A DNA stretch of 64,000 nt, from the NCBI GenBank assembly GCA_040767085.1, contig JAXGPF010000005.1:8343-72342 (forward strand), written 5' to 3'. The stretch comes from Kiritimatiellia bacterium. Its GTDB lineage: Bacteria > Verrucomicrobiota > Kiritimatiellia > JAAZAB01. Below the pieces are notes generated by a model. The model made no database searches, was not told the DNA's origin, and saw nothing but the letters and a program-made list of their open reading frames with translations. Below, piece after piece: positions 26,513 through 30,727 of the stretch. The first letter of the stretch is position 1, and every line of letters begins with the position of its first letter. The translations under genes were made by a program, and so were the position numbers.

Positions 26513-27484
26513 TTAAAGAATTTTGAACTTCGGCAAATCCTGGATATCCACCAGGCCGATCAACCGTCCATCCGCGTCCACCACCAGCAAATCGTCAATA
26601 TTGTGCTCTTCGTACAATTTCAGCGCCGCCACCGCCAGGTCGTCCCCGCGCACGGTCAACGGATGCGCGGTCATCACCTCGCATACCCGGCGCGACGGCA
26701 GGTCCGCCGCCTCGCCGATCAGCCGGCGCAAATCGCCGTCGGTGAAAATTCCCGCCGCCCGCCCCGCGTCATCCACCACGCCCACGGAACCCGAACGCGC
26801 GCGGGTCATGGCCAGGATGGCGTCCTTGAGTGTAGCCTGCAACGGGACGGCGGCCAGGCGTTCGCCCGCGCGCATGATGTCCGCCACGCGCAGCAGCAGC
26901 GCCCGTCCGATGGCGCCGCCGGGATGCAGCTTGGCGAAATCCTCGCGTTTAAAACCGCGCGCCTCCAGCAACACGATCGCCAGGGCGTCGCCCACGGCCA
27001 GCATCGCGGTCGTGCTGGCCGTCGGCGCCATGTTAAACGGACAAGCTTCGCGCGCTACCCGCATAACGACAACCGCATCGCTCAGCCGCGCCAGCGCGCT
27101 TTCCGGCATGCCCGTCAGGGCCACGATCCCGGCCCCCTGCCGGCGCACCACGGGCAGCATTTCCAGCAGTTCTCCGGACTCGCCGGAAAAGCTCAACCCC
27201 AGCAGCACGTCGTGCCGGTTGAGGATACCGATATCGCCATGCATGGCCTGCGCCGGATGAATGGCCACACTGGGCGACCCCGTGCTGGCCAGCGTCGCCG
27301 CGATTTTCTGCCCCACCAGAAAACTCTTGCCGACGCCGGCCACCACGATTTTGCCGCCATCCGCCAGACGCTGCAGCATCAACTCCGCCGCGCGGCTGAA
27401 CCCGACATCCAGATTATCGCTGACCCGCTGCAGTTCCTCGATTTCGATCTGCAGGACATTGCGGGCCCGTTCCAGGATTTTCAT
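26513..27484 (-). CDS. kdsD: KpsF/GutQ family arabinose-5-phosphate isomerase (SIS + CBS pair)
   Basis: ORF track trimmed to ATG 27484 (MKILERARNVLQIE); SIS domain VVAGVGKS; tandem CBS. Confidence 0.85.
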   Translation of the reverse strand: MKILERARNVLQIEIEELQRVSDNLDVGFSRAAELMLQRLADGGKIVVAGVGKSFLVGQKIAATLASTGSPSVAIHPAQAMHGDIGILNRHDVLLGLSFSGESGELLEMLPVVRRQGAGIVALTGMPESALARLSDAVVVMRVAREACPFNMAPTASTTAMLAVGDALAIVLLEARGFKREDFAKLHPGGAIGRALLLRVADIMRAGERLAAVPLQATLKDAILAMTRARSGSVGVVDDAGRAAGIFTDGDLRRLIGEAADLPSRRVCEVMTAHPLTVRGDDLAVAALKLYEEHNIDDLLVVDADGRLIGLVDIQDLPKFKIL

Positions 27485-27622
27485 AGCTTGTATTTCCTCC
27501 GCGCGGCGGCCAGCCGCACGCCTGCCGCCGGCGCGCGCGGTTGGAAGCATACTACGCCAAGCCGGCCGGCAAAGCAAGCTTTCGGAATTCCCGCGGCGGG
27601 CAGTTTAAATTTGACCGGCCGG

Positions 27623-27641
27623 ACACATCCCCGAAAAACCT
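27623..27641. repeat. 19-bp direct repeat ACACATCCCCGAAAAACCT, left flank of IS (target-site duplication)
   Basis: Identical copy at 29024..29042 read directly. Confidence 0.6.
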
Positions 27642-27727
27642 GTCGTAAACAAATGACTTGGCCGCATAATTAACAAATGATTTGTCCGCTTAAAGCTGTC
27701 AGGATGGTGCATTCAAAGGGGGGTTAT

Positions 27728-28912
27728 ATGGATGAATATCCGAAGGCAGCACTGGAGCGGGCAATGAAGGTACAGGAAGTGATCTTGCGTGCGATTGAAG
27801 GGCGGTTAATGTGGTGGGAGGCGGCGGAGATACTAGGTGTGAGCTACCGGACCATGCGGCGCTGGAAAGGGCGCTACGAGCGGTATGGTTACGACGGGCT
27901 GCTGGATCGTCGGCGGAAGATACCGGGGCCGCGGCGCGTGCCCCTTGCGACGGTGAAGCAGGTGCTGAGGTTGTACCGAGAAGAATACATGGATTTCAAT
28001 GTGAGGCATTTTCACGAGAAGCTGCAGGCGGAGCATGGGATCGAGCTCAGTTATCAGTGGGTCAAGAGCGCCTTGCAGACGGCCGGGTTGGTGGCGAAGG
28101 CCCGGAAACGAGGGCCGCATCGGCAGCAGCGGGAACGGCGACCAATGGCGGGGATGATGTTGATGGTGGATGGCAGCACCCATGCCTGGTTGCCCCTGCT
28201 GGCGGGCCAGAAGCAGGATCTGATCCTGGTGATGGACGATGCCACCAGCGAAGTCTACACGGCCTATCTTGTGCCCCAGGAAGGGACATTAACGGTGATG
28301 AAGGGGTTGAAAGAAGTCATTATTAAACATGGGGTTTTCTGCAGTCTGTACACGGATCGTGGCAGTCATTTCTTTTATACGCCCAAAGAAGGCGGGGCGG
28401 TGGACCGGCGTCAATTGACGCAAATTGGACGGGCGTTGCAACAGTTGGGGATCGAACATATTCCGAGCTATAGCCCCCAGGGACGTGGGCGAATAGAGCG
28501 GATGTTTAAGACCTGGCAAGGGCGCCTGCCGCAGGAATTAAGGCAGGCGGGAATCCGGACGATGGCCGAGGCCAACGTCTATATTCAACAACAGTTTCTG
28601 CCTTCCTTCAATCGCAACATGAAGGTGAAGGCGCGGGAAACAGGAACGTGTTTCGTGCCTTGCGGTGAGCAGGATTTGGACAGCATTTTCTGTGTGCAGC
28701 ATGCGCGAGAGGTTCAAAATGACAATACCGTGGCTGTCGGGAGTCGCCGCTTGCAGATTGGACCATCAAAATGGCGTTTCAGCTTCGCCAAGTGCCGGGT
28801 TAAAGTCTGCGAGCACCTCGATGGCACGGTGTCCATCCGTTATGGCCCGCATGTGGTTGGCCGCTACCAAGGACCGTTGAACATTTCGGCGTCGCTGGAG
28901 GACGTCGCATAA
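27728..28912 (+). CDS. DDE transposase (HTH + integrase-core rve domain)
   Basis: ORF track 27677..28912; ATG 27728 (MDEYPKA...) preferred because 27677 lies in the terminal repeat and 27728 follows AAAGGGGGG; DDE-region motifs MVDGSTH, VMDDATS, YTDRGSHF. Confidence 0.8.
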   Translation: MDEYPKAALERAMKVQEVILRAIEGRLMWWEAAEILGVSYRTMRRWKGRYERYGYDGLLDRRRKIPGPRRVPLATVKQVLRLYREEYMDFNVRHFHEKLQAEHGIELSYQWVKSALQTAGLVAKARKRGPHRQQRERRPMAGMMLMVDGSTHAWLPLLAGQKQDLILVMDDATSEVYTAYLVPQEGTLTVMKGLKEVIIKHGVFCSLYTDRGSHFFYTPKEGGAVDRRQLTQIGRALQQLGIEHIPSYSPQGRGRIERMFKTWQGRLPQELRQAGIRTMAEANVYIQQQFLPSFNRNMKVKARETGTCFVPCGEQDLDSIFCVQHAREVQNDNTVAVGSRRLQIGPSKWRFSFAKCRVKVCEHLDGTVSIRYGPHVVGRYQGPLNISASLEDVA

Positions 28913-28915
28913 ACT

Positions 28916-28941
28916 TTTTCCTCCCCCGCGGGGGAGGAAAA
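28916..28941. terminator. GC-rich hairpin just after transposase stop, inside the IS
   Basis: TTTTCCTCCCCC-GCG-GGGGAGGAAAA inverted repeat read directly; no clean U-tract. Confidence 0.35.
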
Positions 28942-29023
28942 TCCTCACCCCAGGAGCAACAACACACAATAACAAATCGGACAGATCACTTGTTACAAAA
29001 AGCGGACACTTGACTTGTTACGA

Positions 29024-29042
29024 ACACATCCCCGAAAAACCT
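29024..29042. repeat. 19-bp direct repeat ACACATCCCCGAAAAACCT, right flank of IS
   Basis: Identical to 27623..27641. Confidence 0.6.
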
Positions 29043-29113
29043 TGCCAACTTCCCGGCAATCCGGCATGATTTAATTTCCATTTGGGAACCGAATAACCGC
29101 GCGAACCAGTCTG

Positions 29114-30727
29114 ATGAACTCCTCCGAAAAAAAAGATCCAGAGGCGCCGGCCGATCCGCTGGTAGACCTGCAGCGTCAATTCCAGGACGCCATGCGGCAT
29201 TATAACCTCGACGGCATGTTTCCCGGGGCCGGGTCCGACCCGGCCCCGTCGGTCAAACCGGCCGCGCCGCCGCCCGACCCGTTGCGCTGCATCCGGGAAT
29301 TCAATCACAAGCCCCGCGAAATCAGGGACTATCTGGACCGTTTCGTCATTCAGCAGGCGGACGCCAAAAAAGTGCTCGCCGTGGCCATCTGCGACCATTA
29401 CAATCATGCCCGGCAATGCATCGAAAATCCGGCCCTGCGCGAACGGGAATACGCCAAGCAAAATGTGATTCTCCTGGGCCCCACCGGCGTAGGCAAGACC
29501 TACCTCATCCGCTGCATCTCCCGGCTGATCGGCGTGCCGTTCGTCAAGTCCGACGCCACCAAGTTTTCCGAAACCGGCTATGTGGGCCATGACGTCGAGG
29601 ATCTGGTCCGCGACCTGGTCAAGGCCGCCGACGGCGACGTAGACCTGGCGCAATACGGCATCATTTACATTGACGAAATCGATAAAATCGCCGCCGCCGG
29701 CAATGCCGGGACGCGCGACGTCTCCGGGCGCGGCGTGCAGGTGAACCTGCTCAAGCTGATGGAGGACACTGATGTCAGCCTCCAAAGCCAGACCGACCTC
29801 CTGGGCCAGATGGAAGCCATCATGCAACTGCAGCGCAGCGGCAAGCCGCCCAAACGCACCATCAATACCCGCCACATCCTCTTCATCGTCAGCGGCGCTT
29901 TCGACGCGCTGGGCGAGCTGGTAAAAAAAAGACTGCAGGCCGGCGCAATCGGATTTGCCGCCGCCGGCCGCGCCACGCGGTCCGACAGCGAATGGCTGAA
30001 AAAGGCGGGCACCGCCGATTTCATCCAGGCCGGGTTCGAGCCGGAATTCGTCGGCCGCCTGCCGGTGCGCGTGGTCTGCGACGGCTTGACCGCCGCCGAC
30101 CTGGAGCAGATCATGCTTACGGCGGAGGACAGCATCCTGACGCAATACCGCCGGGACTTCGCGGGGTACGGCATTGACTTCAGCCTGACCCGCGAAGCCA
30201 TCGGCGCCATCGCCCAGCGGGCGGACGGCGAGCGCACCGGCGCGCGCGGGCTGATGACGGTCATGGAGCGGATTTTCCGGAACTTCAAGTTCGAGTTGCC
30301 GTCCACCGCCGTCAAATCACTGGAAGCCTCGACCGACACCATCGCCGACCCGGACGCGGCCCTGGCCGCCCTGTTGCGCGCCAACCTGCACGCGCAGGCG
30401 GGGCTGCTGAAGAAGGAAGTCGCCGCCTTCGCCGAGCGCTTCCGCCACGAACACGGCCTGGAACTGGTTTTCGAAGAATCCGCCATCTGTGCGCTGGCCG
30501 ACCTGAGCCTCCAGAAAGACCGGACGGTGCGCGCCATCTGCGAAGAAAAATTCCGCGACTTCCAGCACGGCCTGAAGCTGATCGCCAACAACACCGGCCA
30601 GACCCGGTTCGTCATCAACGACGCCATGCTGGCTGCGCCCGACCGCGAACTATCCCAATGGATCGTGGCGAGTTTCAAAGCCGTCCGGAACAAGCCGGCG
30701 CCCGCCGGCCCGCCGGAAGCGGTTTAA
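29114..30727 (+). CDS. ClpX-like AAA+ ATPase lacking the N-terminal zinc-binding domain
   Basis: ORF track; Walker A LLGPTGVGKT; GYVG pore loop; IYIDEIDKI; TRDVSGRGVQ; IGF-like loop AIGFAAAG; no C4 zinc ribbon; about 120-aa C-terminal extension. Confidence 0.75.
   Translation: MNSSEKKDPEAPADPLVDLQRQFQDAMRHYNLDGMFPGAGSDPAPSVKPAAPPPDPLRCIREFNHKPREIRDYLDRFVIQQADAKKVLAVAICDHYNHARQCIENPALREREYAKQNVILLGPTGVGKTYLIRCISRLIGVPFVKSDATKFSETGYVGHDVEDLVRDLVKAADGDVDLAQYGIIYIDEIDKIAAAGNAGTRDVSGRGVQVNLLKLMEDTDVSLQSQTDLLGQMEAIMQLQRSGKPPKRTINTRHILFIVSGAFDALGELVKKRLQAGAIGFAAAGRATRSDSEWLKKAGTADFIQAGFEPEFVGRLPVRVVCDGLTAADLEQIMLTAEDSILTQYRRDFAGYGIDFSLTREAIGAIAQRADGERTGARGLMTVMERIFRNFKFELPSTAVKSLEASTDTIADPDAALAALLRANLHAQAGLLKKEVAAFAERFRHEHGLELVFEESAICALADLSLQKDRTVRAICEEKFRDFQHGLKLIANNTGQTRFVINDAMLAAPDRELSQWIVASFKAVRNKPAPAGPPEAV

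Follow-up and report, generated by a model that had tools for sequence, protein, structure and literature searches.

The 64,000-nucleotide (nt) stretch of contig JAXGPF010000005.1 analysed here, hereafter the window, carries a 1386-bp insertion sequence (IS) with a single transposase gene, lodged in the spacer between the divergent genes of a KdsD-type arabinose-5-phosphate isomerase and a ClpX-like ATPase. Its insertion point coincides with the upstream edge of the probable -35 box of the clpX-like gene, and this position is not a coincidence but the element's preferred target, a point that had escaped the original prediction, which was made from the letters of the window. Taken as a whole, our reading, namely a recent insertion of a predicted ISTde1-type element that duplicated 15 bp of its target, with the promoter edge as the rule for elements of its kind, appears very probable to us. 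The element itself is ordinary: it is an unnamed, recently active member of a described family, and its interest lies in the targeting rule that it exposed across many phyla.

A recent insertion with a 15-bp target duplication

The 19-mer ACACATCCCCGAAAAACCT occurs exactly twice in the window, on the + strand at 27623-27641 and 29024-29042, as originally noticed; none of 100 shuffles matched, even with two mismatches allowed. The 1382 bp between the copies contain one long open reading frame (ORF), helix-turn-helix (HTH) domains, imperfect terminal inverted repeats and a palindrome, and had been taken for the complete element, with the 19-mer as its target duplication. The same 1382-bp core is present, at 100% identity, on seven other contigs from different samples. 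On all seven, a T precedes the core (GTCG...) and ACA succeeds it (...ACGA), whatever the flank, and a 91%-identical isoform on contig L013 aligns over exactly 27641-29026 (1-1386). Because the T and the ACA are constant across differing flanks, and because the alignment of the isoform has this span, the true element is 1386 bp long, from 27641 to 29026, with tips 5'-TGT...ACA-3'.

The uninterrupted site, for which a comparative check had been suggested, was found on an independent metagenome contig, L008, through the exact sequence of the window's KdsD protein. There the kdsD/clpX-like spacer is 228 bp long and joins the left and right flanks of the window through one copy of the 19-mer, the window having exactly 1386 + 15 = 1401 extra bp. 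The event is a genuine, recent insertion into the divergent spacer of a host from the Planctomycetes-Verrucomicrobia-Chlamydiae (PVC) group, and the target duplication is 15 bp, not 19: the proposed duplication was real, and only its length was misjudged. The repeat looks 19 bp long because the target already had ACA 5' and T 3' of the 15-mer, matching the tips. Duplications of 16 bp were found around L013 (both flanks on the same contig), around L040 (on the same 29-kb contig), for the left flank of L003 taken with the right flank of L002 (paired across contigs) and, in group A, for the left flank of L026 taken with the right flanks of L023 and L027; in group B, the left flank of L034 and the right flank of L032 gave 17 bp.

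It is very improbable that the element is nevertheless 1382 bp long (27642-29023), with a 19-bp duplication that would assign it to the IS1202 subgroup with its very long duplications. The window copy alone cannot separate 19 + 1382 from 15 + 1386, since the 19-mer is exact on both sides and occurs whole, once, in L008. However, the T and the ACA accompany the core in all eight identical copies despite at least five different left and at least six different right flanks; where the left flank of L003 is paired with the right flank of L002, the T and the AC of the ACA mismatch the other target copy; the L013 isoform has its clean 16-bp duplication outside TGT/ACA; and TGT/ACA tips are a family trait, whereas 19 bp fits the duplication of no described subgroup.

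As for the distribution of the element, the window holds no second copy, a scan of IMG/VR gave no match, a scan of a genome collection returned one distant relative (L009) and a metagenome scan with the left end returned one contig (L013). An exact-protein look-up with the longest transposase and clpX-like ORFs found no record; the longest transposase ORF spans 27677-28912, its best start is at 27728, and the 394-residue product from that start is encoded identically on the seven other contigs. A relative on a Mesorhizobium plasmid (L010, 46%) has no recognisable ends.

The right junction of contig L005 (1-1677; ENA ERZ28654960) is 100% identical to the window over 94 nt (29027-29120), which indicates the same insertion allele in another sample. 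Its left flank differs, being rich in A and T and having a TGTCAA at 17 nt from the tip, and reflects either a chimeric assembly or a rearrangement between two copies. The flanks of the identical element have 40–50% GC in several contigs (L002-L005 were compared) and 62% GC in the window and L001, which suggests either a very recent spread between hosts or insertion into AT-rich spacers.

Insertion at the upstream edge of promoters

Two orthologous loci, L022 (92% identity of the ClpX-like protein) and L021 (86%; a 98-kb NCBI contig), share the gene order and lack the element. When the spacers of the window, L008, L022 and L021 are aligned, CATCCCCGAAAAACC-TTGCCA-N17-CATGAT is conserved and most of the rest is variable. 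TTGCCA-N17-CATGAT, a putative sigma-70-type promoter, is the sole promoter-like site returned by a scan of 27400-29250 and starts 72 nt before the clpX-like ATG; its -35 hexamer begins at the first base after the duplication.

The same arrangement recurs at other insertions, in the general form of a TTGnnn hexamer directly beside the duplication and a TAnnnT hexamer 16-18 nt (mostly 17) farther on, read away from the element. To the left of the identical copies and of close isoforms, (T)GTCAA stands just outside the duplication; on the opposite strand this reads TTGACA, pointing outward. Three further IS species (65-67% transposase identity) and L009 (57%, from the genome scan) show the same flank pattern, two examples among the relatives being TTGACA-N16-TATACT before a cold-shock gene and TTGTAA-N16-TATGAT before a kinase gene. 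Overall, 16 of 20 independent junctions have a TTG whose first base is 15-17 nt from the left tip; other windows of three offsets gave 1.4 on average and at most 4, and 5000 shuffles gave at most 6. When only the sites fetched after the hypothesis was formed are counted, the score is 9/10 (P = 3.5e-10). A -10 box goes with the hexamer: the best -10 match 16-18 nt past it averages 3.56/6, as against 2.08 in controls (0/20000 resamples reach the observed value), and matches of at least 4/6 are found at 50% of the sites and 6% of the controls. The left neighbour gene is divergent at 14 of 15 sites. The promoter usually lies beside the left end; the minority in which it lies beside the right end includes the window and L009, where the right side reads TTGACT-N17-TATATT.

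The flank motif TGTCAA could also be seen as a mimic of the element's own tip. This reading was set aside as the principal explanation: TTGACA with a -10 at 16-18 nt and a divergent gene fitted all sites, and the target does not co-vary with the tip sequence.

The published insertions of the IS1202 family gave the same picture. This family is divided by duplication length into the ISAba32/ISAjo2 (3-6 bp), ISTde1 (15-17 bp) and IS1202 (24-29 bp) subgroups, and for the long-duplication subgroups the family papers state that no target was found (10.1101/2022.12.17.520857; PMC10132070). We scored the rows with a recorded duplication in supplement 3 of 10.1101/2022.12.17.520857 (Siguier et al.), where the rows for ISTde1 itself are empty. 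In the 36 rows of the ISTde1 group, a TTG abuts the duplication on the left in 22 (P = 1e-29), on the right in 9 (P = 1e-8) and on either side in 27; the spacing to the -10 is nearly always 17, the mean -10 match is 4.56 compared to 2.42 in controls, and seven sites have a perfect TATAAT. In the IS1202 group, 12 of 15 rows have the left TTG (P = 6e-20), nine of these 12 with a perfect TATAAT, and two of the three misses are displaced by 1-2 nt. The 19 rows of the ISAba32 group, which served as a negative control, adjoin XerC arms and never CAA. A precise promoter-edge target for the long-duplication subgroups is new relative to the family papers; a literature search for earlier promoter-directed IS targeting found none, which is not proof of absence.

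Two other features of the table can be noted here. Most entries for the right inverted repeat in the ISTde1 and IS1202 groups begin with TGTCAA (i.e. the right tip is ...TTGACA-3'), and many left inverted repeats begin with TGTAAT, TGTTAT or TATGAT; with a 16-17-bp spacer, the circle junction of such tips would form TTGACA-N16-17-T(G/A)TnAT, a ready promoter for the transposase gene. The window element has no tips of the TTGACA/TGTAAT type. Besides, in several of the rows for ISCde4, ISDku2, ISFersp1 (third), ISArba2 and ISThsi1, a tRNA-like sequence (...GAGCTAC...) lies just beyond the promoter in the left flank, suggesting that some insertions are upstream of tRNA gene promoters, which recalls yeast Ty3 and Ty1.

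Placement within the IS1202 family

The transposase scores 352.4 bits against the NCBIfam model NF033594 (ISNCY_2; cutoff 250), which is also matched by the transposase of ISAjo2 from pXBB1-9 (490 bits), ISAjo2 being the type element in the paper of Harmer & Hall, and by an ISAjo2-type ISNCY transposase from a K. pneumoniae plasmid (506 bits). Pfam reports two HTH domains, and in a MAFFT alignment with ISAjo2 and relatives residues D148, D170, D171, D210, E257 and Q264 (E+7) are invariant; D-DD-D-E-Q(+7) is the signature of the IS1202 family (10.1101/2022.12.17.520857; PMC10132070). Members of this family have a single transposase ORF of 394-507 residues in an element of ~1.3-1.75 kb, ranges that include the window element (394 residues, 1386 bp). 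Judged by profile, signature and size, the element is a member of the IS1202 family, as originally predicted, although not of the IS1202 subgroup proper, the 15-bp duplication pointing to the ISTde1 type. Membership of the IS481 family, which also combines HTH and DDE domains with TGT ends, is extremely improbable: a secondary NCBIfam match, a weak Pfam LZ_Tnp_IS481 match and a distant relationship remarked in the family literature recall IS481, but the score against the IS481 model NF033577 is 113 bits for a cutoff of 224 while the ISNCY_2 model passes, E+7 is Q and not the K/R of IS481, and an additional DD pair is present.

Within the family, the predicted ISTde1-type placement is well supported. 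ISTde1-type elements are 1327-1404 bp long, with transposases from 394 residues. With this subgroup (ISTde1, ISCARN63, ISHahy13) the window element shares its size, a transposase of 394 residues as in ISTde1, the absence of the C-terminal domain found in ISAjo2, TGT/ACA tips, an imperfect terminal inverted repeat of ~25 bp, second internal sites and a duplication in the 15-17-bp class. The hosts of the subgroup belong to diverse environmental phyla, like those of the window element, which comes from a PVC host and from biogas and digester metagenomes. One difference is the right tip, CGAACA instead of the TTGACA common in the ISTde1 group.

With the ISAba32/ISAjo2 subgroup the window element shares the transposase profile and the catalytic signature (26-32% identity between the transposases), and also a geometry, since there the duplication adjoins the binding site of a host protein, the left end being usually the one next to it. 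However, ISAba32/ISAjo2 elements make duplications of 3-6 bp, insert beside dif/pdif at 5 bp from its XerC arm and have transposases of 441-457 residues with the C-terminal domain, whereas the window shows a 15-bp duplication, a promoter-like flank block and neither a XerC/D nor a dif-like site. The IS1202 subgroup proper (IS1202, ISSeq2) belongs to the same family; its duplication is about one helical turn longer, its hosts are Firmicutes and Tenericutes, and its transposases are marked by ~30 extra residues ahead of the catalytic domain, an insertion that the window transposase lacks before D148 relative to ISAjo2.

A possible mechanism of promoter-edge targeting

We consider it likely that ISTde1-type and IS1202-type elements are promoter-targeting ISs, whose insertion is precise to a single base, falls immediately upstream of the -35 box of sigma-70/sigma-A promoters, duplicates the UP-element region and spares the core promoter, most likely via promoter-bound RNA polymerase. 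In the mechanism that we propose, the DDE transposase would cut its target with a 15-17-bp stagger, one nick falling immediately upstream of the -35 hexamer (on the strand that reads ...CAA^) and the other 15-17 bp farther upstream. The transpososome would dock on a promoter occupied by the RNA polymerase holoenzyme, just as elements of the ISAba32 subgroup insert at 5 bp from XerC-bound dif sites. Docking on the holoenzyme is the reading that we prefer, and we give it an even chance. It is favoured because a good -10 at exactly 17 nt accompanies even weak -35 boxes, because the target does not co-vary with the element tips, and because the ISAba32 subgroup inserts with the same geometry beside XerC-bound sites.

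Another observation concerns the duplication lengths themselves: the published classes (5-6, 16-17 and 27-28 bp) step by ~11 bp, i.e. about one helical turn. Such steps fit a complex anchored at one fixed point.

Two alternatives to docking on RNA polymerase have to be weighed. In the first, which is possible though rather unlikely, the targeting is real but the transposase reads promoter DNA directly, the promoter resembling a circle junction, and RNA polymerase plays no part. Indeed, the transposase has two HTH domains, and many right tips in the family read ...TTGACA and many left tips TGTnAT or TATGAT, so that a junction with a 16-17-bp spacer would resemble TTGACA-N17-TAtnAT. Yet the window IS and its close relatives have the tips CGAACA, GGACA, AAGACA and CCGACA and still target TTGACA-type promoters; the cut falls upstream of the -35, unlike the positions cut in a real junction; and the junction spacer of the IS1202 subgroup would be 27 bp long, which is not promoter-like.

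In the second, which is improbable, promoters are not recognised at all, and the pattern results from a short active-site preference (cutting after CAA or ACA) combined with the survival of harmless intergenic insertions. The nicked strand, ...CAA^, does resemble the element's own ...ACA^ tip, the insertions that persist are the intergenic ones, and family elements are also found 15-17 nt from other family tips (L001, L041, L006), in a context that is not that of a promoter. However, a trinucleotide preference can explain neither why a -10, in many cases a perfect TATAAT, stands at exactly 17 nt even with weak -35 boxes (TTGCGC, TTGCCG, TTGATT, TTGAAA) nor why the neighbour gene is divergent at 14/15 sites, and selection cannot yield single-base phasing.

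Two of these tip-to-tip arrangements deserve description. In L001 (5297-5882), 16 nt past the IS, TGTCGTGG... marks where an element in inverted orientation ends, its transposase having 27% identity; 17 nt past a related IS in L041 (2797-4188), TGTCAAAAC... is the left end of another element (32% identity). These end-to-end IS1202-family elements, with 16-17 nt between tips, lie in a non-promoter context.

As regards the transposition pathway, the element probably moves by copy-out-paste-in, via a circle in which the abutted ends would be parted by a spacer as long as the duplication. In contig L006 (1-1514; JGI 3300015214), a T, the full IS, ACA and the 15 nt GATATTTACAAAAAA are followed by another T and by nt 1-112 of the IS. 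Its ends overlap by 113 nt, which implies either a 1401-bp circle or a tandem dimer, and the contig may give a first indication that an ISTde1-type element forms copy-out-paste-in circles; ISKpn21 circles with 5-bp spacers have been reported, the rest of the family being left open by the authors. With the copy-out-paste-in elements (IS3/IS911, IS481, ISKpn21) the window element shares the DDE transposase, the TGT ends and the L006-type junction. By contrast, its spacer would be 15 bp instead of the 5 bp of ISKpn21, no classical junction promoter spans the L006-type junction, and L006 could be a genomic tandem.

Docking on a host complex has parallels elsewhere. In yeast, Ty3 and Ty1 use the transcription machinery of RNA polymerase III genes as their docking site, and Tn7 inserts at attTn7, both being cases of safe-haven insertion beside genes guided by a host protein-DNA complex. 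The precise insertion beside, and not into, a gene is common to these systems and to the element described here. However, Ty3 and Ty1 are eukaryotic retroelements and Tn7 is a multi-protein system with a target selector, whereas here a single transposase would act at sigma-70-type promoters with the help of a host protein that we infer. If true, promoter-edge targeting would explain the odd duplication lengths of the family and provide a bacterial analogue of Ty3-type docking on the transcription machinery. It would also allow promoters to be located from sequence in uncultured phyla, each insertion marking a -35, and would suggest a single-protein tool for placing DNA beside promoters without breaking them.

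Several points weigh against our reading. All the evidence is computational and derived from sequences, and the RNA polymerase step is an analogy, not a result. About a quarter of the junctions have no motif, and the window itself is in the minority orientation. The window promoter matches the consensus at 9/12 positions, a score for which ~1 site is expected by chance in the region, and its support comes from conservation and precise placement rather than from a mapped transcription start. Chimeras across the repeat are common among the metagenome contigs (L003/L004, L005), and some flank pairs were matched across contigs. As to the family, an rve domain is unreported by Pfam for the transposase, whose DDE call rests on the alignment. 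The ISTde1 placement is based on the length of the duplication, on size and on the lack of markers of the other subgroups; the indel reported for part of the ISTde1 subgroup is 5-10 residues long, and only a 3-residue insertion is seen relative to the ISAjo2 transposase and that of the K. pneumoniae plasmid.

Neighbouring genes and expected effect of the insertion

The left neighbour of the element, kdsD, is divergent from the transposase gene, and the identical KdsD protein is encoded on L008. The downstream gene had been called a clpX paralog. Its product is indeed ClpX-like, with GPTGVGKT at residue 122, GYVG at 155 and IGF at 279, but it is not a full ClpX: it scores below the cutoffs of the ClpX equivalog models (325 bits for a cutoff of 359, and 292 for 371), the matches begin at model position 60-68, and the CxxC motif is absent along with the N-terminal zinc-binding domain. 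The protein also has a C-terminal extension of ~120 residues. Proteins of this family have 520-550 residues, are annotated either as ClpX or as 'AAA family ATPase' and are conserved across Kiritimatiellia, Lentisphaerota and Verrucomicrobiota; by this distribution, the host belongs to the PVC group.

The original prediction further held that the insertion could displace the native promoter of the clpX-like gene or supply a new one. Such a rewiring of expression is quite improbable. The element is co-oriented with the clpX-like gene and ends 87 nt upstream of its ATG, its right end has an outward TTGACT 11 nt from the tip, and beyond about -51 the upstream DNA now belongs to the element. However, the conserved TTGCCA-N17-CATGAT and the 15 native bases upstream of it remain joined to the gene, so that the promoter is not displaced. 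Nor is one supplied: no usable outward promoter was found, there being no -10 at 16-18 nt past the TTGACT (CCGAAA, CGAAAA and GAAAAA stand there). In addition, the stable, conserved hairpin after the transposase stop may limit read-through, and the occurrence of the same allele in another sample (right junction of L005) is consistent with neutrality. The effect on clpX-like expression is probably small, and that on the neighbours slight.

A terminator-like hairpin on the - strand at 29042-29059, TTGCCGGGAAGTTGGCAA then GGTTTTTCGG, lying over the -35 and the 15-mer, was also considered; it is not conserved in L021 and L022 and is probably fortuitous.

Anatomy of the element

The features of the element and its surroundings are collected in Table 1.

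Table 1. Positions of the element, its parts and the adjoining features in the window
Feature	Position	Strand	Basis and remarks
kdsD/kpsF-type arabinose-5-phosphate isomerase gene, 323 residues	26513..27484	-	TIGR00393, 307 bits (cutoff 204); ribosome-binding site GGAGGA; ATG at 27484
Left duplication copy, CATCCCCGAAAAACC	27626..27640		single copy in L008
Complete insertion sequence	27641..29026	+	eight identical copies and L013 alignment; tips TGT...ACA
Left terminal inverted repeat (IRL), TGTCGTAAACAAATGACTTGGCCGC	27641..27665	+	pairs with reverse complement of right end
Inner repeat of the inner part of IRL, TAACAAATGATTTGTCCGC; putative second transposase-binding site	27671..27689	+	repeat and motif searches
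Transposase gene, 394 residues, HTH and DDE (predicted)	27728..28912	+	ribosome-binding site AGGGGGG before ATG; NF033594
GC-rich hairpin	28916..28941	+	perfect palindrome, 4 nt past transposase stop codon
Inner repeat at right end; putative second binding site	28975..28995	-	86% inverted match to 27671-27691; direct repeat
Right terminal inverted repeat (IRR)	29002..29026	-	holds outward TTGACT (29010-29015)
Right duplication copy, 15 bp	29027..29041		19-mer search; single copy in L008
Putative sigma-70-like promoter, TTGCCA-N17-CATGAT	29042..29070	+	first base after duplication; conserved in L008, L022, L021
ClpX-like AAA+ ATPase gene, 537 residues, without N-terminal zinc-binding domain	29114..30727	+	ClpX models

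The terminal inverted repeats, which in the family are imperfect and ~24-27 bp long, are imperfect here too, as had been noted, with 19 identities in 27 aligned columns, and IRR is almost invariant among isoforms of 75-91% overall identity. Each end carries a pair of repeats (27648-27669 and 27672-27693 on the left, 28974-28998 and 28999-29023 on the right), the inner copy lying 24-25 bp inward. A second internal site near each end is a family trait, which has been likened to Tn7 (Harmer & Hall, PMC10132070).

Rfam and tRNA scans of the element region were empty. The GC-rich hairpin after the transposase stop, which had also been pointed out originally, lies within a fold with a minimum free energy of -25.5 kcal/mol (z = -2.8); it has no trailing T-run and is therefore not a canonical terminator. 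Its position is kept in the 75-91% isoforms (L013, L020, L015) and in two more distant IS species (L023-L036), with a compensatory change in the stem: CCTCCCCC/GGGGGAGG versus CCCACCCCC/GGGGGTGGG.

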